This document shows, in pieces, positions 2,160 to 52,394 of a stretch of DNA of 64,000 nucleotides; the first letter of the stretch is position 1, and each line of letters starts with the position of its first letter. This DNA is from Candidatus Pelethomonas sp. GTDB taxonomy: Bacteria > Bacillota > Clostridia > Oscillospirales > Oscillospiraceae. Position numbers and translations under genes: made by a program. The stretch spans positions 74,652-138,651 of the forward strand of contig JAZOVU010000029.1 in NCBI GenBank assembly GCA_045658885.1, in the 5' to 3' direction. The notes under the pieces are model-generated. The model was not told the origin of the DNA and did no database searches. It saw nothing but the letters and a program-made list of their open reading frames with translations.

Positions 2160-2463
2160 TGGAATCATCCTCCTTAAATTTTAACAAAAAGAGCGAGCAG
2201 GAAACTTCCCACCCTTTTTCTCCTTCTTGTCCATCTTAACACTAATCGCTGGAAAACTCAACTAAAATAGCCCTCTTTTTCCCTGTACAAAATGTGGAAC
2301 TTTCTCCCGTTTTTTTGTGTATTTTGATTATTGGTGCTTAGATAGCGAAATCTGAGCGAAAACTGTCAGAGAACCACTTGAATAAAACCCAATATCTGTG
2401 ATATAAGTATACCGTCCATACCGCTGCATTTTAGAAAGAAACAATGAGAAAGGAAGAAAAAAC

Positions 2464-3681
2464 ATGAAAGTAACCTCCCGTGGCAAACTCCTGCGCGCTG
2501 TCGCAGGATGTCTTGTCGTACAGCTGTGCGTCGGTATCCTCTATCTGTGGAGTGTGTTCAAGCAATCCGCAATGACCCACTTCGGTTGGGAAAACGGCGC
2601 AGTCAACCTCGTGGCCTCGTATATGCTCCTCTCGTTCTGCCTTGGCGGACTGGTCGGTGGTATTTTACAGGACCGCATCGGCTCTAAGCCTGTCTGTATC
2701 GCTGGCGTTGCCCTGTTTGGTACTGGTATCCTCGCCTCCTCCTTCCTGCCTGCCACCGCACCCATTGCACTCTTTTATCTGACCTACTGCCTGCTGGCTG
2801 GTATGGGTACTGGTTTCGCCTATGGCGCAGTGCTCTCCTGTATCCAGAAGTGGTTCCCCCACAGACGCGGTTTCGCCACTGGTCTGGCAGTATCCGCATT
2901 TGGTCTGTCCACCGTGGTATTCTCCCCTGTCATCAGTGCCCTGCTCACCCGTATGTCCCTGCCGATGACACTGCGTACCCTCGCTGCGGTCTTTCTGGTA
3001 CTGGGTCTGGGGGCTTGTACCCAGATTTCTCTGCCCGATAAGGCATATCTGGATAGCTTGCATCTCCCCACCACCACTGCTTCTGCTACAGAATCCAAAA
3101 CGCTCTCTCAGGCCATTCGTATGTTGCCGTTCTGGTTGCTGTTCGCAGGTGCATTCCTGTACAACGGTACTTGGAATATGCTCACGCCCCTCATCAAAGG
3201 TCTGGGTGTTGAGCGTGGCTTGAGCGAAACTGCCGCCGTTATGTGTGTTTCTCTCACTGGTATCACCAATGCCGCAGGCCGTCTGTTGATGTCTGCTCTC
3301 TCCGATAAGTTGGGACGCGTTAAGACACTGACCCTCCTCTGCGCCATGACACTGGTAAGCGCACTGTTGCTGATTTTTGTCAACGGCCCTCTTTACCTGA
3401 TTGTTGTTCTGGTTACTGCATTTGCATTCGGCGCACAGGCCGCCATTAGTCCTGCTACCTCTACCGATTTCTTCGGTCCCAAGTACTCCGCTACCAATTA
3501 CGGCGTGATTATGCTGTCCCTCGGTCTGTCGTCCCTGACCTTTAACGCCATTTCCAACGCACTCTATGCCGCCAGTGGCAACTACACTAGCACCTTTATT
3601 ATGGGTGCGGTTACTGCACTGCTTGCCGCAGTCGCATTCGTACTCATTGGCCGTCTGAATAAAAAGCGCATCAATGCTTGA
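2464..3681 (+). CDS. MFS transporter (oxalate/formate antiporter-like family)
   Basis: About 12 hydrophobic segments, 405 aa, MFS-like loop motifs, and a purine-rich RBS upstream. Confidence 0.8.
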   Translation: MKVTSRGKLLRAVAGCLVVQLCVGILYLWSVFKQSAMTHFGWENGAVNLVASYMLLSFCLGGLVGGILQDRIGSKPVCIAGVALFGTGILASSFLPATAPIALFYLTYCLLAGMGTGFAYGAVLSCIQKWFPHRRGFATGLAVSAFGLSTVVFSPVISALLTRMSLPMTLRTLAAVFLVLGLGACTQISLPDKAYLDSLHLPTTTASATESKTLSQAIRMLPFWLLFAGAFLYNGTWNMLTPLIKGLGVERGLSETAAVMCVSLTGITNAAGRLLMSALSDKLGRVKTLTLLCAMTLVSALLLIFVNGPLYLIVVLVTAFAFGAQAAISPATSTDFFGPKYSATNYGVIMLSLGLSSLTFNAISNALYAASGNYTSTFIMGAVTALLAAVAFVLIGRLNKKRINA

Positions 3682-3735
3682 TACTTACCATAACCATCCA
3701 AACAGTCACACTATTTTTAATGGAGGATTTTCAAT

Positions 3736-4296
3736 ATGACTTACACCATGAAAGTTGCTGGTCTGGAGCGCGAACTGCCTCTCTGCAAGGTTTCCGACGA
3801 CCTCTATATCGGCGCATTTATTATCTTCGGTGATGCTGAACTGACGGTAGCCTGTGCGGAAGAACTGCTCAAGCGCATCCCGGCGGACAGCTACGACTAT
3901 ATGCTCACCGCCGAAGCTAAGAGCATTCCCCTCATTCACGAGATGGCGCGCCAGAGTGGTGCGAAGAAATACTTCATCGCACGCAAGGGCTCCAAAGTCT
4001 ATATGCCCGACCCCATCCATGTTTCCGTTCGCTCCATCACCACACTGCGTCAGCAGGATTTGTTCCTCGGCAGTGACGACTGCGCGCTCATCAAGGGCAA
4101 GCGTATTCTGATTGTCGACGATGTGATTTCCACTGGCGAGAGCCTGCACGCACTGGAAGAATTGGTCAAGACCGCAGGCGGTATCGTCACCGGTCGTGCC
4201 GCGATTCTCGCCGAGGGCGATGCACTGACCCGTGAGGATATCACTTACCTCGCTCCCCTGCCTGTCTTTAACGCAGACGGCACGGTGAAGGAATAA
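3736..4296 (+). CDS. type I phosphoribosyltransferase family protein (purine/adenine PRTase-like)
   Basis: PRPP-binding motif ILIVDDVISTGESL. GGAGG lies 9 nt upstream of the ATG. Confidence 0.8.
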   Translation: MTYTMKVAGLERELPLCKVSDDLYIGAFIIFGDAELTVACAEELLKRIPADSYDYMLTAEAKSIPLIHEMARQSGAKKYFIARKGSKVYMPDPIHVSVRSITTLRQQDLFLGSDDCALIKGKRILIVDDVISTGESLHALEELVKTAGGIVTGRAAILAEGDALTREDITYLAPLPVFNADGTVKE

Positions 4297-4311
4297 CCCA
4301 AACTGCATACG

Positions 4312-4351
4312 AAAAGCACCGCTGTTGTTTGTCACGGCGGTGCTTTTTTGT
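4312..4351. terminator. bidirectional intrinsic terminator between the convergent PRTase and addA genes
   Basis: Hairpin AGCACCGC...GCGGTGCT is flanked by an A-run and TTTTTT. Confidence 0.6.
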
Positions 4352-4355
4352 TGCG

Positions 4356-7300
4356 TTATAGGGTAATCGTTTCCCCTGTGCCGAGGAAATACAATACCCT
4401 ACGGATGACTGGTTTTTCAAAAATTTGCTCCAAGGCTGTGCTATATGCCTGTACCTGTGGGCGGTAGTGCTGTACTTTTTCTGCCAGATTCTCCTGCGTC
4501 ACATAGTCGGTTTTGAAGTCCACGACAATAATACCATCGTCCGTTTCCGCAAACAAGTCCACAACACCCTGTAACAGCACTTGGTCGTCAGGGGACACCC
4601 CATCGTAGTACGCCTGTGCATCGACCAACAAGCTAAAGCGATATTCTCGCTCCACCGTCTTTGCCGCACGCAGTTCATCCGCGAGTGGCGAGGTAAGAAA
4701 GCGTTCGATGGCGCGCCGATTCACCGCTTTCGCCTGTTGTTCCGTGAGTAACCGCCGTTCTATCAGCTGTTGTATGGTGTCCGATACCTTGCCATCCAAC
4801 GGAAGATACTGCATCACCAGATGGGTCGCCGTACCGCGCTGGTCTGCGGTCAACGGCACTTCGCCAGAGAGAAACCGCGGTGCGTCAAAACTACAGCGGT
4901 AATACGGGCGCGCAGTGTTTTCTGTAATCTCCTCGTCCTTTCCGCGCCCTTTCATCTGGGTTGCAGTGAGTTTGGTTGGGGTGAAACAGGCATTGCTGTG
5001 TGGATAGACATAGTCCAATACCGCACGGTCAAACGGCAACGCGGTCGGTTGCGCCAGTTCTCCCTCCCCTTCCGTATCACAGACCTGCGCGTGGGCAAAA
5101 TCCATCCCATCATGGAATTGGACGCGCCATGCGGTATCCTCGGTCAGTGCATATCTGCCCTCGTCCATGTTGGCAATCACACGCAGTTCCAGAGATTCGC
5201 GCCGTTGCAACAGGGGCAACAGAATCCACTCCGCCATGGATTTCGCGCTGTCCACGGTTTCTGGTGGAACAGGCAGGGACGACACCGCCATCAGGTCAGC
5301 AAGTTTTTTCGCCGCCGACTGCATCGAGGCAACCATAATGAGCTTTTCTCTGGCACGGGTCATGCCGACATACAGCACACGCATCTCCTCGGCACGCATC
5401 TCCCGACTGATACGCGCCGCAATCGCATCACGGGCAACAGTCGGATAGCGGATGTGTCGTTGCAGGTCGATGTACATAGGACCCAACCCCAACTTAGGAT
5501 GCACGAGAACAGGTGTCTGCAAATCCACCTGATTGAACGACTTGTTGAGGTCAGCTAAAATAACGATGGGAAATTCCAAGCCCTTCGACTTGTGGATACT
5601 CATAATCTGTACCCCGTTGTTGGTGCTGGTAGAAACACCTGTCGGCTGGTCGCCGTGCTCCAACAGAAAACGCAGATGGCTGACAAAGGAAAACAGTCCC
5701 TTGTACCCAGCAGTTTCAAAGTTTTTCGCGTGTTCGTACAGCGCAATGAGATTTTCCCGGCGGTCCTCTCCGTGCGACATCGCGCCGAACACACCCAAGA
5801 TATGAAAGGTATTGTATAGGTGCCAGAGCAGACGGTGTACACTCATATCCTTGGCGCGTGTGCGAAGCTCCGCCAACTGTGCAAGGAATTGGGTACAGTC
5901 CGCATCGGTACAGGCGACCAGGGCATCGTAAAAATTCCCCTCTGCGTGTTGTCCGCGGATAAGCGCCAGTCGGTCAGGGCTGAATCCGAAAACAGGCGAA
6001 CGCAAAACAGAAATGAGTGGCACATCCTGTCGAGGATTATCTAATACCTGCAAGAAAGCGAAAACAACCGCTACCTCCATCGTCGCAAAAAAATTGTCGT
6101 TTTCCTGCACGGAACAGCGGATATTTTGCTCCGCCAAGGCGCGGATATAGTGGTGCAAGCGAGGTCCTGGGGAACGCATCAGTATCACGATATCCTCCGC
6201 ACAACAGGGGCGGAACCCATCGCCGTCTGCCACAGGATAGCCCTCATCCAACAGCGTACGAATCCGCTGGGCAACAAAACGCGCTTCGAGCAGGGCACGG
6301 CTCACGCGCTCCTCCCCGCCGAACGGCACCCCAAGCAGATGGAACTCTGGCGCGTCATCTGCGCGCTCTGGCAGATAAGTTGCGCCAAAATTCAGCTGTT
6401 CCTCGTCGCCGTAGTCCATCTCGCCCATTTCCTGGGACATAATCGCACGGAATACAAAGTTGGTCGCGTCCAACACGGGTTGTCGGGAACGGAAATTCTG
6501 GGAGAGCAAAATCTTTCTCGCTTCCCCCGATACGGCATCCTGTGCGTAGGGATACTGGAGATACTTCTCCAGAAAGATGGTGGGGTCGGCCAGACGGAAG
6601 CGGTAAATGGACTGCTTCATATCTCCCACCGTAAAGAGATTTTGACCATTCTGAGAAATGGCGGAGAAAATACAATTCTGTACTTGGTTGGTGTCTTGAT
6701 ACTCGTCCACCATCACTTCACAATATCGTTGGGCAACCAGATGCGCCAACGGCGTGCGTTCTCCGTTCTCGTCTAAGAGCAGAGAGATGGCGTAGTGTTC
6801 CTGGTCGGAGAAGTCGGTCACATTACGGCGCAGTTTTTCTTTGCGGTAGGCATCGGAGAAATCCATGCAGAGCTGTAACAGTGCCTCCATCGCCGCCGCG
6901 CAGTTCCGCAAATCGAGCGTAGCATCCTCCGCGCGGACGGAGAGAATCCCCAGTGCGCTCGCCAGTTCCTTTTTGCACTTGGCACGGATACTCTTTAGCT
7001 TTTCTTTCAGTTCGACCGCCGTACTTTTGCGAGAACCAGACAGTGTCACCCAGTCCAATGGATAGGAACCAGCGACATCCCAACCCTCGTCTATCTTTCG
7101 CGCCAGATGTTCTAACATGGTGATGTCAAGTAGAAAGGCTTTCCCATAGCCTTTTTTCAGTTCTTCATCGCCATCCATCTGGGCAACACAGTCCCTAAAT
7201 ATCGAAATCCAGTGGTGTACCTTTCGTTTGAGTGCGGAAAGCAGCTCCTGTCCGAATACCGTCTGGCTGACATCGTCTGGCAACGACCGCCAGCTTGCTT

Positions 7301-7901
7301 TTTGTTCTTCCAACCATTTCTCGGGGTAGGCGTGGCTCTGTATTTTGGCATATAGCTCCAATACTAATGTTTCCAAACCACGGTCATCTCGACCAAATCC
7401 GAAGGCATCCGCCAACATCGCTCCGCCGTGCGTCAAGTTCGCATAGAAGGATTCCAACACACGGGGCAATACACGGCGGCGCAACAGGTCTGCCTCACTC
7501 TCATCGAGTACGCGGAAATCTGCCGTTAAACTGCGTCCCTCCGCCGTATGCAACAGATGGACATTTTCGCGCAACAGACCCGTGCAAAATGCGTCAATCG
7601 TCTTAATATCCGCCTGATAGACCAGCAGTAGCTGTCGCTGTAGATGGCGATTACTGGGGTCATCGGCTAGGTACTCGCTCAACTCCTGTGCGATGCGCTC
7701 GCGCAGTTCAGCGGCGGCGGCGCGGGTATAAGTGATGATGAGGAAATCATCAATGTTTGCCTGTTCTTCGCCGAGAATCCGCCGAAACAGTCGTTCCACC
7801 AAAACGCGCGTTTTACCACTACCAGCGGCTGCACTGACCAACAGACTTCCCCCTTGGTTCTCGACGACTGCCTGTTGGCTCGGTGTGAGCTGAATCTTCA
7901 T
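4356..7901 (-). CDS. addA: ATP-dependent helicase/nuclease subunit A (AddA/RexA, UvrD-like helicase plus PD-(D/E)xK nuclease)
   Basis: Walker A AAAGSGKT, DEYQDT box, UvrD-like motifs, 1181 aa. The ATGA overlap with addB indicates translational coupling. Confidence 0.9.
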   Translation of the reverse strand: MKIQLTPSQQAVVENQGGSLLVSAAAGSGKTRVLVERLFRRILGEEQANIDDFLIITYTRAAAAELRERIAQELSEYLADDPSNRHLQRQLLLVYQADIKTIDAFCTGLLRENVHLLHTAEGRSLTADFRVLDESEADLLRRRVLPRVLESFYANLTHGGAMLADAFGFGRDDRGLETLVLELYAKIQSHAYPEKWLEEQKASWRSLPDDVSQTVFGQELLSALKRKVHHWISIFRDCVAQMDGDEELKKGYGKAFLLDITMLEHLARKIDEGWDVAGSYPLDWVTLSGSRKSTAVELKEKLKSIRAKCKKELASALGILSVRAEDATLDLRNCAAAMEALLQLCMDFSDAYRKEKLRRNVTDFSDQEHYAISLLLDENGERTPLAHLVAQRYCEVMVDEYQDTNQVQNCIFSAISQNGQNLFTVGDMKQSIYRFRLADPTIFLEKYLQYPYAQDAVSGEARKILLSQNFRSRQPVLDATNFVFRAIMSQEMGEMDYGDEEQLNFGATYLPERADDAPEFHLLGVPFGGEERVSRALLEARFVAQRIRTLLDEGYPVADGDGFRPCCAEDIVILMRSPGPRLHHYIRALAEQNIRCSVQENDNFFATMEVAVVFAFLQVLDNPRQDVPLISVLRSPVFGFSPDRLALIRGQHAEGNFYDALVACTDADCTQFLAQLAELRTRAKDMSVHRLLWHLYNTFHILGVFGAMSHGEDRRENLIALYEHAKNFETAGYKGLFSFVSHLRFLLEHGDQPTGVSTSTNNGVQIMSIHKSKGLEFPIVILADLNKSFNQVDLQTPVLVHPKLGLGPMYIDLQRHIRYPTVARDAIAARISREMRAEEMRVLYVGMTRAREKLIMVASMQSAAKKLADLMAVSSLPVPPETVDSAKSMAEWILLPLLQRRESLELRVIANMDEGRYALTEDTAWRVQFHDGMDFAHAQVCDTEGEGELAQPTALPFDRAVLDYVYPHSNACFTPTKLTATQMKGRGKDEEITENTARPYYRCSFDAPRFLSGEVPLTADQRGTATHLVMQYLPLDGKVSDTIQQLIERRLLTEQQAKAVNRRAIERFLTSPLADELRAAKTVEREYRFSLLVDAQAYYDGVSPDDQVLLQGVVDLFAETDDGIIVVDFKTDYVTQENLAEKVQHYRPQVQAYSTALEQIFEKPVIRRVLYFLGTGETITL

Positions 7902-10900
7902 GCTTTCTCACTCTCCTTCTGATTGCTCTCATCGATATAGTTCCAAAAGTCCTCGGTACGGATGGGACGAATCAATTTCATATGGTCGTTCTCGTCCATA
8001 TCCATAAAATGACACGCGGAGGCAAATTCGCAGTAAGTACAGGCGTTATCGTTCTCGTTGTGTCCACAGGGGTCCGCATCAATATTTCCCCCATGCAGTT
8101 CCGTGGCAATCCGTTTTAGCAAGGTGTCCACATATCGACTGAGTTTTCCCAGTTCCTCGGCAGTTGCCACGCCTTTGGTAATACTGCCATCTTTTCCAAT
8201 CGACAGAGGCAAAAACCGTGGATTCTCCAATGCACCGTGTTCCATCGCCTCCAATACGGCAGGTTCTGCCAACACCATACCACTGCGGCGCAGTTCCTTG
8301 TCCATGGCATCGCGCAGTTTTTGTTCCGCCACACCGCGCGGCGCATGGATGAGTACATCACGCGCTGGGAAGTACAGAATACCAGCAGGCACGACCTCCT
8401 GCCCCTGAAACAGGTGCTTGCCCTGTTTTTGTAGAGCAAAGAGATAGAGCAACATCTGGATGTTTAAGCCGTGGCGCACATCGCTCAAATCAAACGCCTT
8501 TTTACCAGATTTGTAGTCGACCACGCGGAGATATAGTTTGCCATCTTTGAGCCATCCGTCCACACGGTCCACCTTACCAACGACTGTCAATGCTGTTTCA
8601 TCGGTACGCATGGAAATAGCAGGTACTGTTCCATGCTCGCTAAAATCCAACTCAAAATACAGGGGGACGAAGTCGGACTTCTGTAGTTCCTCCGCCGCAT
8701 TCTCCACAATCGTTGTGACCGTCTTACCCAACCGCCGAAACAGATATTGAAAACGCGCTTCTTTTTCCGTAAAACCTGGCAAAGAAGTTTCCATATACCC
8801 TTGAATCACTTCATCAATGAATGTCTGCAACTCCCCTTCCCCAAGGGCAGAAAAACCACCACACGCCATGACCTTGCGCGTGACATGTTCCAGTACATAG
8901 TGCATAAAGGTGCCAATCTGCGTGGCATCGAATTTTGCTCCACTGCGCTCCTTGGCACGCAGTCCGTACTGCATAAAGTAGGCGAAGTGGCAGGAATTGA
9001 TTTTATCAATTTTACTGGCCGACAGGCGGTAATTACGGCCATACAGGGCTTCTACCGCCTGTTCGGATAACCGACCGCGTGTCATACCTGCGGCGCGTTG
9101 CATTGCGGTAAGCTTCGGCGCATATTGGTCATTAGTCGCGAAATAGTCCCATAGAGGACTACCACAATTTCCACCTGCCATCTCCAAGGCAGGAATCCCT
9201 GCGCGCAGACGGTAGGCATGGTTGCTATCTTCCGCCTGTATCTCAACACCTTCCAACAGCGCGCGGATACGCCCCACCACAAACGACGGGCGCAACGGAT
9301 TGCCCAGTAAATCCGCCGTTGGCCATGTGACACACAGCCCCTCATACGGCTGTGCAAGGGTGGCATAGAGGTTTTGTAGTTCAATATCCAGCAAATCCAA
9401 TCCACTGGGGGCAAGTTCAATGCCACGCTCTGACAACAGCGAACGGTCCTCCCGATTGAGCAACCCTGTGTGCATCTGCACCGCAGGCAGAACATGGTCG
9501 TTACACCCTATCAGAAATACATATCTGCTCTGTCGCCGTTCATTTCTGGTAATCTGCGACACCTGTACCTGGTCGAGGGAGGCAGGAATCGTACCAATGT
9601 CGTACTGGGTCAGAATGAGTTTCATCAGTCTGCCAAATTCCTCGTGGTCCATGGGCATATCACCCAATGTCTGTGCAAACTGGTCCATGACACTGCACAG
9701 CAATTCCCACAGCTGGCTGTACTCGCTGGCGCGCTGTAGTTCTCCCAACTGTTCCAACTGTTCCGTTCGCTCTGACAGCTGTGCCGCCAGACCGATATCC
9801 TCCAAGAACTGCCACAAAACTTTGAGTTTTCCTGTTGCTCCCTCCTCTGCCTTATATCCCTGTGCCAGACGGCGCAGAGGGTCGCTCACACGGCTACGCA
9901 GGGTATTGATATACGCCAGCTTTTCCTCCTGTTCCTCCGAAAAGCCGTCGCACCAACCGTCGGGGTTCGCACTCCAATTCTCCTCACGCACCCACATCGA
10001 GCCGTGGATGTCCCACAGAATGACATAGTTCTCGAGAATGTCGCACTCCTCGTCATTCAAACCTGCCAGTCCTGTTTTCAGCCAGCGGAACATATCCTCG
10101 TACTCATAGCCACCTGCCACACTGTCCAACACCCCCGTGAGCAGGCTGATGACAGGTTTTTCGAGAATGTCACTGCGCCGACTGAGGTAAAATGGAATCC
10201 CATATCGTTCAAAGACATTTTCCATCGTGGCGGCATAGTCGTCAATGTTACGGGCGACCACAGCAATATCACGAAACCGACAGCCTTTCTCTCGGACAAG
10301 GCGCAAAATTTCAGAGGCAACATATTCCACTTCTGAGAACATTCCATTGGCACGGTACAGACGCACCGCAGAGCAGTCGCCCTGCCATGCACCATTTCCG
10401 CCGAAAAAATTTGCCTCCAGATGTTGCAGGGCGTTGGTCGGCTGTTTACTCTCTCGATACACCACATGACAGGGGATACTATCCCTAGAACAGAGGCGAA
10501 GCAGTCTATCTCTCGTCCGCAGACTTTGGTGGAAAATTTCGAGCGTACTGCCTTGCTCCCCCAACAGCGTGATACTGACACTCTCACAGCGGTGCAGGAG
10601 CATCGCAATCAGCTGTTCTTCCTGCGCGGTAAAGTAGGAGAATCCGTCCAAGTAGAAATCCTTTCCGTCTGCATAACCAGATTCCTCCAATCGCTCCAAT
10701 AGCTTCGTCATCAAATCACGGCGGTCACCATGCTCTCCCTGTAATTTGGACAGGTACGCGGCATAAATCAGACTGACATCGCGCAGTTTGTCCCCCGACA
10801 TCCCCTCCAAAATCTGCGAAACATCGCCCAATGTTTCTGGAAGGACACGACAACTCTGCAATTCATCGCACAGTGTCACCAGTTCTGCCAAAAAACTCGC

Positions 10901-37241: not shown

Positions 37242-38237
37242 ATGGCTATCAAGAACCGCTACGAATTCATGTACTATGTCGCCTGCACCAACTGCAATCC
37301 CAACGGCGACCCGGATATGGGCAACACGCCCCGCATCGATCCCCAGACCATGCATGGCTATCTGACCGATGTTTCCACCAAGCGGCGTATCCGCAATTAT
37401 GTCCAGACCGCCTACGGAGACGAAGACGGTATGGAGATCATCATTCAGCAGTCCACCAACATCAACCGCCATATCGCCCGGGCCAAGCGCGAAGCGGGCT
37501 TTGAGGATTGCGCCAAGGGTACGGATGCTGTCTATGCCGGCCGTCGGAAGGCCTGTGAGCTGTTCTATGATGTGCGTACATTTGGTGCCGTCATGTCCAC
37601 CGGTCCCAATGCCGGTCAGGTTCGTGGTCCCGTCCAGATCGCCTTTGGCAAGAGCCTGGACCCCATCCTGCCCCTTGATATCTCCATCACCCGTGTTGCA
37701 ACCGCTGAAAAAGCAGGTAATGATACGCTGGAAGATTATCTGGAGCAGGAGGCAAATGCCTCTGAGGATAAGCTGCGTACCATGGGTCGCAAGCAGATTA
37801 TCCCCTTTGGCTTGTACGAAGTCCGTGGCTTTATCAGCGCCAATCTGGCTGGAGAGACCGGCTTCGATGACAACGACCTGAAGGTTCTTTTTGAAGCAAT
37901 CCTGAATATGTACGAGCATGACCACTCCGCCAGTAAGGGCGAGATGGCTGTTGTTTCTCCCCTCATCATCTTCAAGCATGTCGGCACCGATTCCGATGAA
38001 AAGCAGCGCATCCGCCAGGCAAAATTGGGCTGCGCCCCTGCCCATCGACTGTTCGATTTGGTTAAAGTGGAAAAGAAAGCTGATGTGGCTTATCCCAGAA
38101 GCTACCATGACTATGTTGCAACTGTGGATCTGGAGCACATCCCTGCAGGTGTGGAAATCGGCTTCCAGACCGATGCCTTCAGCTGCATCACCTGGAATAG
38201 GCTTCCCACGGGAGAGAAGTGGTTCAACCATGGATGA
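37242..38237 (+). CDS. cas7: Cas7c (Csd2) backbone subunit
   Basis: NRYEFMYYVACTNCNPNGDPDMGNTPRID is the typical Csd2/Cas7 N-terminus. Confidence 0.9.
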   Translation: MAIKNRYEFMYYVACTNCNPNGDPDMGNTPRIDPQTMHGYLTDVSTKRRIRNYVQTAYGDEDGMEIIIQQSTNINRHIARAKREAGFEDCAKGTDAVYAGRRKACELFYDVRTFGAVMSTGPNAGQVRGPVQIAFGKSLDPILPLDISITRVATAEKAGNDTLEDYLEQEANASEDKLRTMGRKQIIPFGLYEVRGFISANLAGETGFDDNDLKVLFEAILNMYEHDHSASKGEMAVVSPLIIFKHVGTDSDEKQRIRQAKLGCAPAHRLFDLVKVEKKADVAYPRSYHDYVATVDLEHIPAGVEIGFQTDAFSCITWNRLPTGEKWFNHG

Positions 38238-38892
38238 TTGGGAATCGCTCCCTCTGTCACGGCTTGCCCACGCAGGCTACTGCCTGCGTCGGGCAGCCCT
38301 GCTGACCAATGAACAGCTTTGGCAAGAAAATGCCGATACCGCAAAGGGACGGGAGGCTCATAAACGGGTCCATACCAACAGGATCGAGCGGCGCGGCGAG
38401 CATCTGCAGCTTTTTGAATACGATGTTTTTTCCAAGAAACTGAACATCGGTGGAAAATGTGACTGTATTGAGGCAACAAGGGATGACGCAGGTTGCTTTA
38501 TCCCGTCGGCAGAGTTTGCAGTGCGTTTGTATCCTGTAGAATACAAAAACGGAAAGCTTCGGGACGAAGAGGAGTACGAACTTCAGCTCTGCGCGCAAGC
38601 CATGTGTCTGGAAGAAATGTATGACACGACTATCCCGGAAGGTGCCATTTTTTATATCAGTTCCCACCGTAGAAAAACGGTAGAATTTACGGACGAGTTG
38701 CGTGAGCAGGTTCGTGATACTGTACAGAAACTGGAGGACATTCGCCGCAACTATTCCATTCCGCCAGCAGTTTCCGGCCCGAAATGTAAGCGTTGCTCCC
38801 TCCGCGAGCTTTGCCTTCCAGATGCCGCCCAATCCGCAAAAAAATACTGCGACAAACTCGCAAATGAAGCGATGGGGGTGGATGCTCTGTGA
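38230..38892 (+). CDS. cas4: Cas4 RecB-like exonuclease
   Basis: N-terminal Cys (GYCLRRA), a D...EYK nuclease core (PVEYKNGK), and C-terminal CKRCSLRELC, giving the four-Cys Fe-S pattern. Overlaps the cas7 end by 8 nt. Confidence 0.9.
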   Translation: MDDWESLPLSRLAHAGYCLRRAALLTNEQLWQENADTAKGREAHKRVHTNRIERRGEHLQLFEYDVFSKKLNIGGKCDCIEATRDDAGCFIPSAEFAVRLYPVEYKNGKLRDEEEYELQLCAQAMCLEEMYDTTIPEGAIFYISSHRRKTVEFTDELREQVRDTVQKLEDIRRNYSIPPAVSGPKCKRCSLRELCLPDAAQSAKKYCDKLANEAMGVDAL

Positions 38893-39914
38893 AAAAGCTT
38901 CTGGAAACCATGTACATCACTACACCGGATAGCTATGCTTTTTTGCGCAACGAAAATATCTGCGTAGAAGTTGGCGGTGAAGAGCGGGCATCTGTCCCGG
39001 CATCTCAGGTGGATTCCATCGTGTTCATCGGAAAAAATACCGTATCTACCGCACTGATGGCCTTTTGCGGCAAGCATGATATTACCCTGAGCTTTATCGG
39101 CATACACGGAGAGTTCTGCGGACGGGTCTGCGGCCCGGTCAGCGGAAATGTACTCCTTCGCAAAAAACAATATGAGAGCTTGCATGATACCAAATTTGTA
39201 TCTACAACGGTTCGGAATATTCTTTATGGTAAAATCCGAAACGGTAAAGATGTTCTCTTGCGGTATGCTCGCAACGCAGCGAAATCCAAGAATGCCGATG
39301 TGCTGTATGCTGCAGCAGAAAAGCTCGGCGGTATGGCAAAGATGCTGTCTGAGACGGATAATGTGGATATTATGCGCGGCATCGAGGGTGCTGCAGCCAA
39401 CGCCTATTTCTCTGTATTTGACAATATGATTGATGGAAAGAACGGCTTTGTCTTTGACACAAGAAGCAAACGACCTCCCAGAAATGAAGTCAATGCAGTT
39501 CTGTCTTTTGTATACACGCTGATGACCCACGATTGCGTCTCTGCATTGGAGACGGTAGGCTTGGACCCCGCAGCAGGATATCTGCATACACTCCGGCCTG
39601 GACGCGCCTCCTTTGCATTGGATATGATGGAAGAATTGCGTTCGCCCCTGTGTGACAGGTTCGTCATCAGTCTCCTTCATAAAGGACAGCTATCCAAGAA
39701 GGATTTCAACAGCGAGGGTGATGCAGTCTGGCTCAATGAAAAAGGACGACGAACTGTTCTTTCTGCGTGGCGGGAACGCAAGCGGGAGGAAATCACGCAT
39801 CCGTTCTTCAAGGAGAAGATACAGATTGGCTTGATTCCCTATACACAGGCGATGCTCTTTGCCCGGGTTCTGCGTGGGGATCTGGATCTGTATCCTCCCT
39901 TTGTGTGGAGGTGA
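38889..39914 (+). CDS. cas1: Cas1 integrase (type I-C), GTG start overlapping the cas4 stop
   Basis: Conserved Cas1 core (EGAAANAYF...RPPRNEVNAVLSF...GYLH). 341 aa. Confidence 0.95.
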   Translation: MKKLLETMYITTPDSYAFLRNENICVEVGGEERASVPASQVDSIVFIGKNTVSTALMAFCGKHDITLSFIGIHGEFCGRVCGPVSGNVLLRKKQYESLHDTKFVSTTVRNILYGKIRNGKDVLLRYARNAAKSKNADVLYAAAEKLGGMAKMLSETDNVDIMRGIEGAAANAYFSVFDNMIDGKNGFVFDTRSKRPPRNEVNAVLSFVYTLMTHDCVSALETVGLDPAAGYLHTLRPGRASFALDMMEELRSPLCDRFVISLLHKGQLSKKDFNSEGDAVWLNEKGRRTVLSAWRERKREEITHPFFKEKIQIGLIPYTQAMLFARVLRGDLDLYPPFVWR

Positions 39915-39918
39915 GGGT

Positions 39919-40209
39919 ATGCTGATGCTTGTAACATATGATGTCAATACTACCACGCCTGCCGGAGCCAAAAGACTTCGCCAAGTGGCGAAGCTCTGTG
40001 AAAAATATGGAATTCGTGTCCAAAATTCTGTTTTTGAGGTGCTGGTGGATGGAGCGCAGCTTGTGAAACTGAAAGCGAAGCTGTCAGAACTGATCGATGA
40101 AGATGAGGATTCCGTCAGACTCTATCGTCTGGGCAATTCTTATGAACACAAAATCGAAACGATGGGTCGTGTACCGCTGATTCAAACCGGTGGTTCTATA
40201 ATCCTCTGA
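39919..40209 (+). CDS. cas2: Cas2
   Basis: MLMLVTYDV...RLRQVAKLCEKYGIRVQNSVFE. 96 aa. Confidence 0.95.
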   Translation: MLMLVTYDVNTTTPAGAKRLRQVAKLCEKYGIRVQNSVFEVLVDGAQLVKLKAKLSELIDEDEDSVRLYRLGNSYEHKIETMGRVPLIQTGGSIIL

Positions 40210-40371: not shown

Positions 40372-41131
40372 GTCGCCCCCCCTGCGGGGGCGCGAATTGA
40401 AATGGTACATACCTTGAGGAGTTTGTGGCGCAGAAGTGTCGCCCCCCCTGCGGGGGCGCGAATTGAAATATTACATGGCCGTTCTTGTACGGCGAATATT
40501 TAAGTCGCCCCCCCTGCGGGGGCGCGAATTGAAATTTTCAGCTTCTCCGTCAACTGGCCATCCGTGTACGTCGCCCCCCCTGCGGGGGCGCGAATTGAAA
40601 TACGGATCAGGAAATCGCGTACTTCATGAACCTCTGGTCGCCCCCCCTGCGGGGGCGCGAATTGAAATATAAATAGATTGGGTTTTCCGTCCAGCACCGC
40701 CTTGTCGCCCCCCCTGCGGGGGCGCGAATTGAAATAATTGTTCCTGCGCTGAAATTCAAACTGCTATTGGTCGCCCCCCTGCGGGGGCGCGAATTGAAAT
40801 ATTTAGTGCCTTTACAACAGTTTCCAAAAGACCAGGTCGCCCCCCCTGCGGGGGCGCGAATTGAAATCATAAAGCCGAACAATTTCCCTAAGGTGTTGGA
40901 TGTCGCCCCCCCTGCGGGGGCGCGAATTGAAATCGTCCCTGCCGTATATGGATACCCTGCGGATTCAGGTCGCCCCCCCTGCGGGGGCGCGAATTGAAAT
41001 GCCAACGCCATCAGCAAGTGCGAGGTGAAAACCGTCGCCCCCCCTGCGGGGGCGCGAATTGAAATAACGACATCCTGTATGTGGTACTGACTGTCGCAGG
41101 TCGCCCCCCCTGCGGGGGCGCGAATTGAAAT
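40372..41131 (+). CRISPR. CRISPR array, 12 repeats (32 nt, GTCGCCCCCCCTGCGGGGGCGCGAATTGAAAT) and 11 spacers of 33-35 nt
   Basis: Repeats counted by hand at 40372, 40438, 40504, 40570, 40637, 40704, 40770, 40836, 40902, 40969, 41034 and 41100. The palindromic core CCCCCNNGCGGGGG and the ATTGAAAT 3' end are typical of type I-C. Repeat 7 is 31 nt because it lacks one C. Confidence 0.97.
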
Positions 41132-41244: not shown

Positions 41245-41700
41245 TTGGAAACGATGAAACCAAACGGCTGTCCGACGATGGAGGGCAGTCTACCTGGCCA
41301 GTGTGCCAGTATGGTCTTTCCGTATGTCCCGATGCAGGGCGAAAGTCCTGAACGCTACGATGCACAGGAAGGGCTGGCGACTGGCACTTTGTTCCCCGGG
41401 CTGAATCTGCCGTTTTTTAAGGCGATTCGCTCCCGTATGAACTGTGACAACCGCGCCCTGTGTGAATTGATGGCACTGAGTTTTGCCATTACAGAACTGG
41501 GCTTATATCTGGATACCCACAAGAACGACCGCGAGGCCCTGCGCCTGTATCGCGAGTATGTCGCAATGGCGGAAGATGGAAGAAAACGCTACGAGGCGGT
41601 GTATGGCCCACTGATGCAGAAACATGCTGGGGACGACCAAAACGGTTGGAACTGGATTGATAGTCCGTGGCCGTGGGAATACGAAGGAGGGCGAAAATAA
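41245..41700 (+). CDS. fused CotJA-CotJB-like spore coat protein (start uncertain: TTG 41245 or ATG 41254)
   Basis: The N-terminal part FPYVPMQ...YDAQEGLATGTLFPGLNLPF is CotJA-like. The C-terminal part ELGLYLDTHKNDREALRLYREY...YGPL...WNWIDSPWPWE is CotJB-like. GAGGAGGAG RBS at 41229-41237. Confidence 0.7.
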   Translation: METMKPNGCPTMEGSLPGQCASMVFPYVPMQGESPERYDAQEGLATGTLFPGLNLPFFKAIRSRMNCDNRALCELMALSFAITELGLYLDTHKNDREALRLYREYVAMAEDGRKRYEAVYGPLMQKHAGDDQNGWNWIDSPWPWEYEGGRK

Positions 41701-41796
41701 TGTTTGTCTATGAGAAGAAATTGCAGTATCCCGTAAAGATTAAAAATTGTAATCCAAAACTCGCCGCCGTAATTATCAGTCAATATGGTGGTGCTT
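41700..41796 (+). pseudogene. cotJC: cotJC (Mn-catalase-family spore coat protein) remnant, truncated after about 32 codons
   Basis: MFVYEKKLQYPVKIKNCNPKLAAVIISQYGGA matches the conserved CotJC N-terminus. It then diverges and stops at 41888. The TAATG overlap with the upstream gene and the GAAGGAGG RBS are retained. Confidence 0.65.
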
Positions 41797-41861
41797 ATAT
41801 CAATAGGATACAACCAACTAATAGACCCCGAATCCAAATCGCGGATTTCTTTGCACAGGTA

Positions 41862-41889
41862 TTGCAAAATGTTCTAGCTGTCGTATAAT
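41862..41889 (+). promoter_or_regulatory. candidate sigmaA promoter for fic
   Basis: TTGCAA, a 16-nt spacer, then TATAAT, 11 nt upstream of the GAGGAAG RBS and the ATG at 41901. Confidence 0.5.
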
Positions 41890-41900
41890 AGAGGAAGAAA

Positions 41901-42932
41901 ATGCGTAAGTTAATACGCAAGTTATCGAGAGGTGTTTTCATGGGAAATTACAAACCACCATTTACCATCACAAATCAAATTTTATTCTATGTATCTTCTA
42001 TTTCAGAAAAAATAGGTCGGATTACGGCAACCAGCAACTTGGAATCAAAACCACACCTAAGAAAAAATAACCGTATCAAGTCTATCCATTCCTCTTTGCA
42101 GATTGAAGCGAATTCCCTTTCTTTGGGACAAGTGCGGGATGTCATCAATGGAAAGACTGTTCTTGGCGAGCAAAAGGAAATCCAAGAAGTAAAAAATGCC
42201 TATGCCGCATATGAGCGTCTTTCTGAACTCAATCCATACAGTATCAACGATTTGAAAACATACCACGGCATTATGACGAGATATCTTGTTACAGAATCTG
42301 GTGATTTCCGTCGCGGTGAAGAGGGTGTTTTTAACGGTGAACAGTGTATTTTCATGGCACCGCCTGCACGATTGGTTCCACAGTTGATGGATGACTTGTT
42401 TTCTTGGATGCAGGAAGCGAAACATGGTGTGCATCCGCTCGTTGTAAGTAGCGTATTTCACTATGAATTTGTCTTTATCCATCCATTCTCTGATGGGAAT
42501 GGCAGAATGGCGCGGTTGTGGCATACCGCTCTCCTCTCTCAATGGAAACCGATATTTGAATATATTCCTATTGAGAGCCAGATTGCGAAGTTTCAAGAGG
42601 AATACTATGATGCTATTGCCAAATGCCATGTAGAGGGAGAATCTACCATCTTCATTGCGTTTATGCTATCGCAAATTGATAAGATTTTAGAGGATATCGC
42701 TGTACAAATTCGCGAGGATACGGAGCAACTTTCGGAATCCATTACGCGGTTGCTCCATGTGATGGAATACGATATTCCTTATACCAGCAAAACTTTGATG
42801 GAAAAATTGGGACTAAAATCGAAAGAGGGATTCCGTAAAAACTACCTGCGTCCGGCGATAGAGAGGAATCTTATCTGTATGACGATTCCAGAGAAACCTA
42901 ACAGCCGGAATCAGCGATATGTGAAAATCTAG
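41901..42932 (+). CDS. fic: Fic family protein (AMPylase-type Fic domain, N-terminal inhibitory-helix region, C-terminal winged-helix-like region)
   Basis: Core motif HPFSDGNGRMARL (HxFx[D/E]GNGRxxR). N-terminal SSLQIEANSLS resembles the [S/T]xxxE[G/N] inhibitory motif. The gene is visibly more AT-rich than its neighbours. An alternative start lies at 41940. Confidence 0.9.
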   Translation: MRKLIRKLSRGVFMGNYKPPFTITNQILFYVSSISEKIGRITATSNLESKPHLRKNNRIKSIHSSLQIEANSLSLGQVRDVINGKTVLGEQKEIQEVKNAYAAYERLSELNPYSINDLKTYHGIMTRYLVTESGDFRRGEEGVFNGEQCIFMAPPARLVPQLMDDLFSWMQEAKHGVHPLVVSSVFHYEFVFIHPFSDGNGRMARLWHTALLSQWKPIFEYIPIESQIAKFQEEYYDAIAKCHVEGESTIFIAFMLSQIDKILEDIAVQIREDTEQLSESITRLLHVMEYDIPYTSKTLMEKLGLKSKEGFRKNYLRPAIERNLICMTIPEKPNSRNQRYVKI

Positions 42933-42942
42933 CATAGCAATG

Positions 42943-42978
42943 CCCCCAGTCCCAAAAGTCAGGACTGGGGGATTTTTT
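42943..42978. terminator. bidirectional intrinsic terminator between fic and the giant gene
   Basis: CCCCCAGTCC-9 nt-GGACTGGGGG followed by ATTTTTT. Confidence 0.7.
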
Positions 42979-50291: not shown

Positions 50292-52394
50292 TTACCCAAG
50301 CTGTACGGGGCTGTATTCTCCGCTCCCATAATGGATAGGCTCTGCCGAAATCCCTAAACCATTATTGTCCTCTGTAATGTATTTGTTGCCTGTGAGCTGA
50401 CTATAGCTGTAGCCACAGAGGACACGGAAAATCCAATCCGCTTCTTCCAATGTAATCACACCAGATTCCACCATCTCACCCAGATACTTGTCGGTCAGGT
50501 CTGCGGAACCCTTCTTCTTAGCCACGGAAACAACATCATCATAGCCCGCACTGCTACCAACACCGCCAGCAGTACCGCCCTGTGAGCCACCAGAACCAAC
50601 CTGTGAATCGCGATATTTCTCCTGTTGCAGGGCAAATTCTTGATTCCACTGGTCCAGTGCTGCCTGAAACTCCTGTTCCCACTGGTTATTCTTAATATTG
50701 GCCTGTTGCTGATTGAAGCCAAATTCTTGATTCCATTGGTCCAATGCCGCCTGAAACTTTTGTGTCCACTGGTCGTTGGCAATATCGGCCTGCTGTTGGT
50801 TAAACCCGAACTCCTTGGCCCACTGCTCCAAAGCGGCATTAAATTCCTGTTGCCACTGGCTATCGGAAGCATTGGCGCGCCCCTGCTGGAACGCAAACTC
50901 CTTCGCCCACTGTTCCAAAGACGCGGCAAACTGTGCCTTGGAAAGCCCAAACTCCTGTTCCCACTGCGAAGCAGAGAGTTCCACCTGCTGTAAAGCCAGT
51001 TTATATTCCTGCTCCCACTGCTTGAGCTGTGCATTGAACTGGTCCACACTGAGGTTATATTCCGCCGCCCACTGCTCCAGAGAGAGAAGCTGTGCGAGAT
51101 AGTTCTGGGTGATGTCCAATGCCTTATCCGCTTTCTCAAACTCACCTTGCGCGCGGAGGTCCTCAATCTGTCGTGCCGTATCGGTGGAGAGTTTGGTCTG
51201 CGCCTGTTGCACAGCAAGCCGATTTTGGGCGGCCGTATTCTGGACAGAGGTATATTGTTCCTGTCCGATACCACCGTTGTCACCGCGAAGCTGGGCATAT
51301 AGTGCGGCATTGTCCATCGCCCGTCGTTCATCAATGGCAACACTCTCTGCCTGCCCCTTAAACTGTGTCTGTGCGTCCTGCAAAGCTCGTTCCAATCCAA
51401 GGACGGCCTGTTGTGTCGCATTGTCAATCTGGCCATTTATCTGTTCCTGTGTAGCGGTTTTCCACTGCTCCAACAGGGAAAGCAACTGCTCTTTCTGCAA
51501 ATAACTGAGCTGTTCCTGGGATGCGCTGGCCGCCAGTTCTTGCAAAGTTTTGCGAATGTTATCAAAAACGGCACTGCTCTCGTCTGCAATTGGATAATTG
51601 GTATACCCCTCTGTCGTTCCATATTGGTTGCGCCACGCATCCGTTGCCTGTTCGATTCCCAACTGTGCTAATGGGATATACATTGAGCCATCTGTTCCGC
51701 CAGAGTAACCAGCACGGGCGCGTGTTTTTTCGGCCTCGTTGTGCCAGTAAGCCTTATCCTCCGCAGTGGTTGCCTTGGCATACATCTCCTTGCAGTACTG
51801 AATATAGGCGTAGGCACCGTCGCTCAAATGCGCCTCATCCGCACCAGATGCTCCTTGTGCCACTGGTCTGGCCGTCCCATCGTAGTAATACCACACGCCG
51901 TCCTCATAAACCCCTTCTACTGGGTCGCCACTGCCACCCCCAGCGATGGCAGTATCTCTATCCTGCGTATAGCCACCTTTTTGGGAGTATTCATCCAGCA
52001 AAGCCGGGTCAATCCCTGCAGCAATCAGCTGTTGTCTTAGTTGCTCGGTGGTGTAGGCATTGCTACTACTAGCATTTTGGCTCTGGTACTGCTTTTCCTG
52101 TGCAAGCTGTTGGTCATATCCCTGCTGGCCACTACCACCCTCACCCCATATCTGTTGATTCAGGCTGGTGTACTCGTCCGCCGAGTTCTGTGTCGTCGAT
52201 GTTGTAGTTGATGTCGTGTTAGCCGTGTCGTTGGTGGTCTTTGGTTGTGTTGCAGAGTTACCCATAATCTGCACATCATAGCTTGGTCGCTGTACGGGCA
52301 ATTCCACATCCCCTTTTCTAGGCGGTCTGGGAAGTGGTCGTATCGTACCAATCTTCTCAATCAGTTTTGGTCTGCGCTGTTCCTCTCTCGTCAT
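50292..52394 (-). CDS. Q/W-rich repeat-containing phage structural protein (701 aa)
   Basis: Start at MTREEQ has a GAGGGAA RBS and lies 10 nt after the portal stop. It has a Thr/Ser/Gln-rich N-terminus, coiled-coil-like Q-rich segments, and 29-aa tandem repeats. Confidence 0.7.
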   Translation of the reverse strand: MTREEQRRPKLIEKIGTIRPLPRPPRKGDVELPVQRPSYDVQIMGNSATQPKTTNDTANTTSTTTSTTQNSADEYTSLNQQIWGEGGSGQQGYDQQLAQEKQYQSQNASSSNAYTTEQLRQQLIAAGIDPALLDEYSQKGGYTQDRDTAIAGGGSGDPVEGVYEDGVWYYYDGTARPVAQGASGADEAHLSDGAYAYIQYCKEMYAKATTAEDKAYWHNEAEKTRARAGYSGGTDGSMYIPLAQLGIEQATDAWRNQYGTTEGYTNYPIADESSAVFDNIRKTLQELAASASQEQLSYLQKEQLLSLLEQWKTATQEQINGQIDNATQQAVLGLERALQDAQTQFKGQAESVAIDERRAMDNAALYAQLRGDNGGIGQEQYTSVQNTAAQNRLAVQQAQTKLSTDTARQIEDLRAQGEFEKADKALDITQNYLAQLLSLEQWAAEYNLSVDQFNAQLKQWEQEYKLALQQVELSASQWEQEFGLSKAQFAASLEQWAKEFAFQQGRANASDSQWQQEFNAALEQWAKEFGFNQQQADIANDQWTQKFQAALDQWNQEFGFNQQQANIKNNQWEQEFQAALDQWNQEFALQQEKYRDSQVGSGGSQGGTAGGVGSSAGYDDVVSVAKKKGSADLTDKYLGEMVESGVITLEEADWIFRVLCGYSYSQLTGNKYITEDNNGLGISAEPIHYGSGEYSPVQLG
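50612..51070 (-). repeat. degenerate 87-bp (29-aa) in-frame tandem repeats
   Basis: Units begin near 50639, 50726 and 50813, with more diverged units up to about 51070. The consensus peptide is QWxQEFxAALxQWxxEFGFNQQQAxIxNx. Confidence 0.85.

Follow-up and report, generated by a model that had tools for sequence, protein, structure and literature searches.

The 64,000 nucleotide stretch analysed here (the window) comes from a Candidatus Pelethomonas metagenome-assembled genome (MAG; G000, contig C29, positions 74652-138651). It contains the start of the spore coat gene cotJC, which is cut at codon 31 by E1, a prophage of approximately 31 kb that integrated by large serine recombinase (LSR) recombination. 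The remainder of the gene is cut again at codon 63, at the left attachment site of a second, unrelated LSR element, E2, and a third time at codon ~171. We regard it as close to certain that the anatomy at cotJC is that of site-specific LSR insertion. As the best overall explanation we suggest, with some reserve, that such elements split cotJC and that the gene is probably reconstituted by excision in the mother cell. The MAG has a size of 2.16 Mb in 71 contigs with an estimated contamination of 3.7%. Its contig C67, which carries the second piece of the gene, is also labelled L003 and has its own coordinates.

The first gene of the cotJ operon is a fusion of cotJA and cotJB encoding 151 aa (41245-41700, plus strand). 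Both Pfam domains, CotJA (residues 26-57) and CotJB (71-145), are found in this one intact open reading frame (ORF), and at the DNA level it is approximately 73% identical to the cotJ loci found in other genomes of the genus. The TAA of cotJA/B overlaps the ATG of the cotJC ORF at 41700 (TAATG). The first 31 codons of the latter (41700-41792, plus strand; MFVYEKK...IISQYGG) match positions 1-32 of the Pfam Mn_catalase/CotJC model with 29.8 bits, above the curated cut-off, and 31 of 31 residues are collinear with the intact 198 aa CotJC of same-genus genomes. A preliminary description of this DNA had called the cotJA/JB-like gene intact and the ORF starting at the TAATG overlap a CotJC N-terminus, and both readings hold. 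It had placed the end of cotJC at approximately nt 41795; the switch to foreign sequence is real, but the cotJC-derived DNA already stops at 41791/41792, in codon 31, where QYGG-PDGE stands in the relatives. The codon of Ala32 already belongs to the phage arm, and the residue is a mere mimic of the GGADGE of Bacillus subtilis. The truncated ORF consists of MFVYEKKLQYPVKIKNCNPKLAAVIISQYGGA followed by 30 unrelated residues, an element-encoded read-through tail (A32...VV, 41793-41888, plus strand) with no CotJC similarity past codon 31 and a stop at 41886-41888.

We did not find a full-length match to PF05067 (Mn_catalase/CotJC; ~198 codons in CotJC-type proteins) in the genome. There are only fragments: model positions 1-32 on C29, 28-64 on C67 and a 27 codon C-terminal tail on C12. 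The host is an endospore former according to the two marker families that were checked, an intact SpoIVA ATPase (379 bits) and two SpoVAC/SpoVAEB genes.

A whole-genome search located the second cotJC piece on C67 (1980-2087). It reads YGGPDGELGASLRYLSQRFSMPYPELRGLLTDIGT and comprises 35 codons, codons 29-63. The neighboring gene on C67, reading toward this piece, encodes a 504 aa LSR, LSR1, with Resolvase, Recombinase and Zn_ribbon_recom Pfam domains above their cut-offs; its stop codon lies 26 nt ahead of the piece and of the core of the right attachment site (attR). On the intact gene of relatives, the first piece aligns to nt 93 and the second from nt 84, an overlap of approximately 10 nt. 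The core of the left attachment site (attL) in the window, TATGGTGG (41784-41791, plus strand), is identical to the attR core on C67 (L003 1983-1990). Next to it, the P' arm ATCAATAGGATAC (41799-41811, plus strand) repeats, in inverted orientation, the P arm ATAGTCTATTGAT found ahead of attR (L003 1969-1981). The phage attachment site (attP) reconstructed from these halves is ATAGTCTATTGAT-GTATGGTGGTGCTTAT-ATCAATAGGATAC, with a 16 nt spacer that is centered on the common core and mimics the codons Q-Y-G-G. The two predicted sites of the reaction are attP1, ...ATAGTCTATTGATGTATGGTGGTGCTTATATCAATAGGATAC..., and the bacterial attB1, ...ATTATCAGTCAATATGGTGGACCCGATGGCGAACTC..., the predicted attB joint containing …CAATATGGTGGACCCGATGG…. 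When the host flanks of site 1 are joined they give ...IISQYGGPDGELGA..., in frame (...QYGGPDGE...) and collinear with intact relatives. The attP of E1, with its arms ATAGTCTATTGAT and ATCAATAGGATAC, crossed over with attB within TATGGTGG. Run in reverse, LSR1 recombination would re-create the exact frame across site 1.

The same break is found in dozens of other genomes, and since they are cut at the same codon it is not a chance event. Arms identical to those of E1 border site 1 in three of them (G012, G017 and G019). In G033, G005, G015, G017, G080 and G195, the end of an LSR1 relative (38-80% identity) is 20-40 nt away from a cotJC piece broken at this codon. Among 79 named species genomes, 45 have this layout; in 16 of the 45 it is reversed, with the recombinase beside the 5' piece. 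Many IMG/VR contigs have it too. The named genomes span Oscillospiraceae, Acutalibacteraceae, Lachnospiraceae, Eubacteriaceae and Anaerovoracaceae. Unintegrated phage contigs in IMG/VR (~40-85 kb) carry an intact palindromic attP right behind the LSR gene, with a core that copies the cotJC codons; examples are TTTGGAGTATGGTGGTGCATACTCCAAA and GTAGTCTATTGACGTCCGGAGGTCCAGA...CCTACAAT. Because its relatives adjoin the same codon and free phages carry the matching attP, LSR1 is a member of a large clade of integrases, from phages and islands, that are dedicated to site 1 of cotJC.

The preliminary description had proposed an intervening element in cotJC, with a 3' cotJC fragment beside a recombinase gene at the far end of the element, and named simple decay of the gene as the alternative. 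The C67 piece with LSR1 is the predicted fragment, and the partner piece, the att anatomy and the in-frame join bear out the structural part of the proposal. Simple truncation or decay at codon 31 is ruled out by the partner fragment beside an LSR and by the att anatomy; truncation without an element was seen in no relative. The expectation that 150-160 codons would follow proved wrong, as only 35 do before the gene is cut again at codon 63 and later at codon ~171. The closest relative outside this genome is a metagenome contig (L040; JAEIGA011266171.1, 998-1162), with CotJA/B 85% identical and a cotJC that is uninterrupted at site 1. This cotJC has an in-frame TAG at codon 10 (CAG TAG CCC; TAT in relatives), which may be a sequencing error in a 1.1 kb low-coverage contig or a real nonsense allele.

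The left 22 kb of E1 occupy the window from 41792 to 64000. Inside the element, a sigma-70-like promoter (TTGCAA-16-TATAAT, 41862-41889, plus strand; a consensus match only, at 10 of 12 positions) precedes the first gene, which is of the Fic/Doc family (41901-42932, plus strand, probable start 41940; Pfam Fic and Fic-like_C). The G+C content of this gene is 42.7%, against ~51%, and it is followed on its 3' side by a hairpin and a T-run (~42940-42978). The phage genes in the window encode, by Pfam, a P22-like portal, the large and small terminase subunits, a replication protein and a 2425 aa protein. A promoter, an AT-rich fic gene, a terminator and phage genes had all been read from the letters in the preliminary description, and each has its counterpart here.

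E1 continues to the end of C29, 6.1 kb beyond the window, with ParB, ParA, DnaB, XRE and helicase ORFs. Since the halves of one attP lie on C29 and C67, the two contigs probably belong to one molecule. E1 very probably crosses a TnpB insertion sequence (IS) into C67 (1-1982), where it ends with RelB, LSR1 and attR; its total of ~31 kb assumes a direct join of the contigs. The head of the IS is at the end of C29 and its tail at the start of C67, and the orientations agree. The IS is of the IS200/IS605 type, 1.4 kb long and TnpB-only (373 aa). It has ~20 copies of 90-100% identity in the genome, and most contigs end in a copy. Those relevant here are at C29:144597-144768 (just beyond the window), C67:1-140 and C67:8731-8869, and a full copy is at C44:4986-6396. 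It is inserted directly after the RelB stop codon in E1 and within the TnpV gene of E2. In another MAG (L128), the TnpB IS lies directly behind the stop codon of a 99% identical LSR1.

The cotJC frame is lost again after codon 63 (C67:2088). The 18 nt behind this break, CAGGGTCAAAATGAAACC, match the arm of an element, AGGGGTCAAAATGAAACC, at the same cotJC position in the metagenome contig L047, which carries both site 2 junctions, the inverted arm (ATTTTGACCCCT) and the continuing exon on one contig. Further along C67, on the opposite strand, is a second LSR gene. LSR2 has 508 aa and the same three Pfam domains (Resolvase, Recombinase and Zn_ribbon_recom), and is 27% identical to LSR1. Relatives of LSR2 (40-57% identity) show the same layout at site 2 in L047, L054, L052, G245/G156/G311, G103/G285 and the same-genus G195. 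In G195, a single contig carries LSR1 and LSR2 genes converging on exon 2, together with exon 3 (codons 61-198), 26 kb apart. The convergent arrangement around the micro-exon recurs in L054, L057, L133, L137, L168 and G195. Codons 29-63 form a micro-exon that ends at the attL of the LSR element E2.

E2 contains, in order, AIM24, a FAD/Rieske oxidoreductase, def, LSR2 with a 73 aa ORF, a Fic gene and a TnpV gene cut by the TnpB IS at the contig end. The 73 aa ORF overlaps the start of LSR2 and is conserved upstream of LSR2 relatives in five loci, and we regard it as a candidate recombination directionality factor (RDF) for LSR2. Two other origins of the codon 63 break were considered, a deletion into native downstream genes and an inversion mediated by LSR2, since the LSR2 gene is 3.2 kb off on the other strand and a homologue of the oxidoreductase stands immediately behind cotJC in G026. 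Both were rejected: the 18 nt match the attL2 arm of L047, and the opposite strand is normal for the clade (G195, L054, L052 and G245). Inverting the block also leaves cotJC unrestored. The oxidoreductase is the sole copy in the genome; besides G026, a homologue is found in G018, there ahead of a paralogous Mn catalase. The sequence just behind the LSR2 stop codon (5265-5300, minus strand) resembles a degenerate cotJC site, with a 9 nt match (AAATGATTG) at the cotJC offset.

The last 27 codons of cotJC, FGEGLRLAKEKLGEKNIYYMNPSFDK, were found on C12 with a same-genus CotJC query. Ahead of them are 49 nt of foreign sequence and, before these, the end of an IS66 copy. This fragment of an IS66 family transposase (C12:3799-4305) has copies of 98% identity at the contig ends of C34, C27 and C18, so that IS66 is a second repeat family that breaks the assembly. 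A plain IS66 insertion was rejected as the cause of the third break, as the IS end is 49 nt off, and the cut at this codon (FGE|G) is shared by two other genomes, G024 and G017, which carry there a conserved element end that is not an IS, a Fic gene and an LSR of a fourth clade. The third break is therefore, judged from these relatives, a site-specific element again, with IS66 secondary. A site 4 break (codon ~176, ...QRFGE|G...) is also present in G103 and G285, each of which has a site 2 element in addition. At least four genomes are cut at site 4, and two of these share the element end CAAACCATACTGATTTAAG. Fic/Doc genes recur beside an att site or a recombinase in three unrelated kinds of cotJC element, namely E1, E2 and the site 4 elements of G024/G017. 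Besides the gene in the window they are found at L003 (C67) 7277-8338, L207 1467-2240 and L208 2251-3024. They are mutually only ~26-27% identical, and there is no obvious reason for the repeated cargo.

Between the second and third breaks would lie an exon of 324 bp that is missing from the assembly. Its expected context is a ATTTTGACCC-type arm, GGTACAGAAGAA..., ...TTCGGCGAAG and a CAAACCATACTGATTTAAG-type end. The contigs cannot be linked by assembly overlaps, both repeats (the TnpB IS with ~20 copies, and IS66) being multi-copy. Synteny downstream of cotJC is not conserved among same-genus genomes and is therefore useless for placing C12. The three exons that are present are intact, with 94-100% protein identity to relatives. 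The in-frame join was demonstrated for site 1 only, and the whole cotJC cannot be rebuilt from the assembly.

Split cotJC genes are common in the family. We surveyed 301 sampled Oscillospiraceae genomes and found a Mn_catalase/CotJC match in 244. In approximately 90 of these, by count from the survey listing, only fragments of cotJC were found, and 80 of them were re-examined for the ends of the pieces. The ends cluster at three model positions, 28-34 (~20 genomes), 59-66 (~43) and 147-152, that is codon ~136 (~19). Together with the third break described above, this gives four recurrent sites, at codons ~30, 62, 136 and 174, the last also given as ~171-176. At least 12 genomes have more than one site occupied, and virtually no piece contains an internal stop. 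The split set includes closed or near-closed genomes (G245, G311, G083 and G239). A 35 codon micro-exon between convergent recombinase genes, as found here, is present in at least six other genomes or contigs.

In a maximum-likelihood tree of 77 LSRs, the enzymes of sites 1, 2, 3 and 4 each form a clade of their own (99-100% support). Site 2 has a second, small lineage in addition, and the apparent exceptions are labelling artefacts at micro-exons. The LSRs found at sites 3 and 4 in relatives have Resolvase, Recombinase and Zn_ribbon_recom domains above their cut-offs. Many relatives carry small, 3-10 kb, non-phage islands in cotJC, with little beyond the LSR and its cargo. In G221 (C1 71980-129852), three cotJC pieces lie on one contig, 17-58 kb apart, with 1-33 and 28-151 on the minus strand and 147-201 on the plus strand; the gene seems to have been scrambled by an inversion between elements.

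Two groups of related genomes allow the age of an insertion to be compared with that of its host. Between G103 and G285 the whole locus is collinear, the element being 84.9% identical and the flanks 89-97%. Between G233 and G301 the corresponding values are 89.5% and 82-88%. On this comparison the element is clearly older than the species in two genera, and therefore all exon divergence arose while cotJC was interrupted. The exons of G103 and G285 differ by 44 synonymous changes and 1 non-synonymous change, which gives a ratio of non-synonymous to synonymous substitution rates (dN/dS) of 0.005 at a dS of 0.46. For the exons of the trio G233, G301 and G136 dN/dS is 0.02-0.03, and for the more divergent pair G245/G311 it is 0.07, with dS saturated. 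As a gene that is never reassembled would not stay so conserved, we take the split cotJC to be functional in those two genera. The pattern points, indirectly but strongly, to regular and precise reconstitution of the gene in the family.

Excision in the mother cell, as described for skin, SPbeta, gin and yin (PMC5025042, PMC4191935, PMC5595907, PMC10747680), would by analogy be the obvious mechanism. In brief, each recombinase, together with a directionality factor, would excise its own element in the terminally differentiated mother cell. Intact cotJC would then be rebuilt for coat assembly, while the germ line would keep the elements. We consider it likely that cotJC undergoes regulated reconstitution in the family. 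For the genome studied here we put the same process at somewhat under an even chance.

Several observations weigh against excision of this kind or weaken the evidence for it in this genome. No conserved partner that could act as the directionality factor of LSR1 was found, the RelB gene upstream of it being unconserved. By inspection, there is no convincing sigmaE or sigmaK promoter upstream of LSR1 or of the pair of the 73 aa ORF and LSR2. Exact-protein look-ups gave no empty site from the same strain, and a metagenome scan gave only the 85% identical L040. In most relatives LSR2 abuts the site 2 arm. Here a 3.2 kb block of AIM24, the oxidoreductase and peptide deformylase (L003 (C67) 2089-5330) separates the attL2 arm from the 3' end of LSR2. 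This block has no counterpart in close relatives and no terminal repeats were found at its ends. Codons 64-171, the right end of E2 and an attR2-like sequence are absent from the MAG, and three excisions would be needed in a genome in which one exon is unassembled. E1 has no close orthologue by which it could be dated. The link between C29 and C67 passes through an IS with ~20 copies and is hence plausible but not unique. This IS has invaded both E1 and E2, and IS66 lies 49 nt from the third junction. Some of the elements, at least, are therefore decaying. Finally, B. subtilis spores without CotJC are cited in PMC12122855 as having no obvious defect.

The mild phenotype just mentioned also agrees with an explanation in which cotJC is a passive landing pad, that is, a conserved but dispensable safe harbor for LSR phages and islands. 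The gene would be off in carriers and would come back only where, in rare cells, phage induction removes the element, without any developmental programme. E1 has packaging genes, free phages with the matching attP exist, the elements insert both ways and across many families, and many genomes have a paralogous Mn catalase. We nevertheless find this explanation unlikely. The split exons are free of internal stops in ~90 species, and where the element has diverged by 11-15% along with its host, an exon dN/dS of 0.005-0.03 is unlike that of a permanently silent gene. Furthermore, many of the elements are 3-5 kb islands without phage genes, unable to spread by induction.

It should also be considered that the insertions are site-specific but that the gene is dead in this particular genome. 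Exon 3 may have been lost, the third element may be damaged by IS66, or three excisions may rarely coincide, which would make the pieces young pseudogene fragments. The absence of codons 64-171 and of an attR2-like sequence from the 2.16 Mb assembly would fit, as would the IS66 fragment at the last junction and the TnpB insertions in E1 and E2. Neither the body of the third element nor an LSR of the site 4 clade was found in the MAG, nor was the rest of TnpV. On the other hand, a 324 bp exon between two mobile elements is the type of contig that is typically lost in binning, here from an assembly of 71 contigs that all end in repeats; a real loss is possible. The conservation of the three remaining exons, the intactness of both LSR genes and of all visible att arms, and the frequency in relatives of double and triple splits with all exons intact (G080, G195, G103/G285) make a dead gene distinctly improbable in our view. 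That C29, C67 and C12 come from different strains or species through chimeric contigs or mis-binning, to which the estimated contamination and the 99% identical LSR1 of another MAG might point, is very improbable, as the halves of one inverted-repeat attP with matching cores lie on C29 and C67, the junctions are 28 kb and 2 kb from contig ends, the same TnpB IS (93-100% identity) occurs in all three contigs, and the same architecture is found in single contigs of closed or near-closed genomes (G033, G245, G311 and G195).

An LSR intervening element in a sporulation gene is of a known kind; what is unusual here is three elements in one small gene. The skin element in sigK, excised by SpoIVCA in B. 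subtilis and by CD1231 with the RDF CD1234 in Clostridioides difficile, is likewise prophage-derived and inside a mother-cell sporulation gene. The target in the present case, however, is a coat gene and not a sigma factor, three elements share the gene, excision and sigma control are inferred, and the LSRs are related only distantly to the skin recombinases. SPbeta in spsM, with the SprA integrase and the RDF SprB (PMC4191935, PMC5499854), is similar in being a phage-sized LSR element in a spore-envelope gene, and free phages with matching attP are found here. In contrast to SPbeta, no SprB-like RDF or sporulation promoter was found, and cotJC is cut again downstream whereas spsM is not. The gin element in gerE of Bacillus cereus ATCC 10987 (GirC and GirX; PMC5595907) resembles the small cotJC islands of relatives, and LSR2 with its translationally coupled 73 aa ORF resembles GirC with GirX. 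The target gene and the LSR clades differ, and the 73 aa partner is only a candidate RDF.

Galperin et al. (10.1101/2022.02.25.481979) mention that cotJC of Laceyella sacchari contains a skin-like element, and a passage in 10.1101/2021.11.22.469490, citing Abe et al. 2013, names cotJC as a gene that is often targeted for integration. Both the gene and the type of recombinase agree with those found here. Those are single-case mentions in Bacilli, whereas we find four sites with their own LSR clades, multiple occupancy, and splits in about one third of Oscillospiraceae species. In C. difficile, phi027 adjoins a CotJC homologue (PMC11222575, PMC12122855). We found no paper on the four sites, on the LSR clade that goes with each, on multiple occupancy or on how frequent the splits are in Oscillospiraceae.

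In cyanobacteria, recombinase-bearing elements likewise interrupt genes (nifD, fdxN and hupL) that serve only the heterocyst, a terminally differentiated cell. A gene may contain one such element or, in some strains, several, and all of them must be excised. These belong to another phylum and another programme, and their recombinases are mostly different (XisA is a tyrosine and XisF a serine recombinase), so that the comparison is an analogy only.

Upstream of the cotJ operon, the window contains cas4-cas1-cas2 (37918-40209) and a CRISPR array (40372-41131) with 12 repeats (GTCGCCCCCCCTGCGGGGGCGCGAATTGAAAT), one of them degenerate near 40770. The array ends only ~110 nt upstream of cotJA/B. 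Two of its spacers, at 40934-40968 and 41001-41033, match contig C31 of the same genome, at 51336-51365 (30/30) and 52309-52338 (28/30) respectively. These targets are ~10 kb from another serine recombinase gene (C31:40019-41053), and the two spacers may be self-targeting, directed against a resident element.

The truncated ORF in the window marks where, on the left, a serine-integrase prophage joins cotJC and is not a decayed gene, and the cotJC 'pseudogene' fragments on three contigs belong together, which is useful for annotators. With their attB and attP known, the many naturally orthogonal LSR/att pairs are potential tools for genome engineering. For the family, the findings are comparative evidence that programmed gene reconstitution in sporulation is widespread in uncultured gut spore-formers; so far it has been studied in few Bacilli and in C. 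difficile. The split cotJC offers a clear test system for the coordination of several excisions. Based on these observations, we tentatively speculate that cotJC in Oscillospiraceae and neighboring Clostridia could be a multi-site hub of programmed rearrangement, although we hold this broader proposal to be doubtful. Up to three of its four fixed sites would be occupied, each by elements of its own orthogonal LSR clade, with the micro-exon as a stable product. The elements, which comprise phages and islands with efflux, surface-protein, Fic or CRISPR cargo, would be inherited vertically as quasi-permanent parts of the germ line. Multiple excisions would then act as a recombinase 'AND gate'. 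If this is true, the mother cell must finish several independent excisions in order to make one coat protein.

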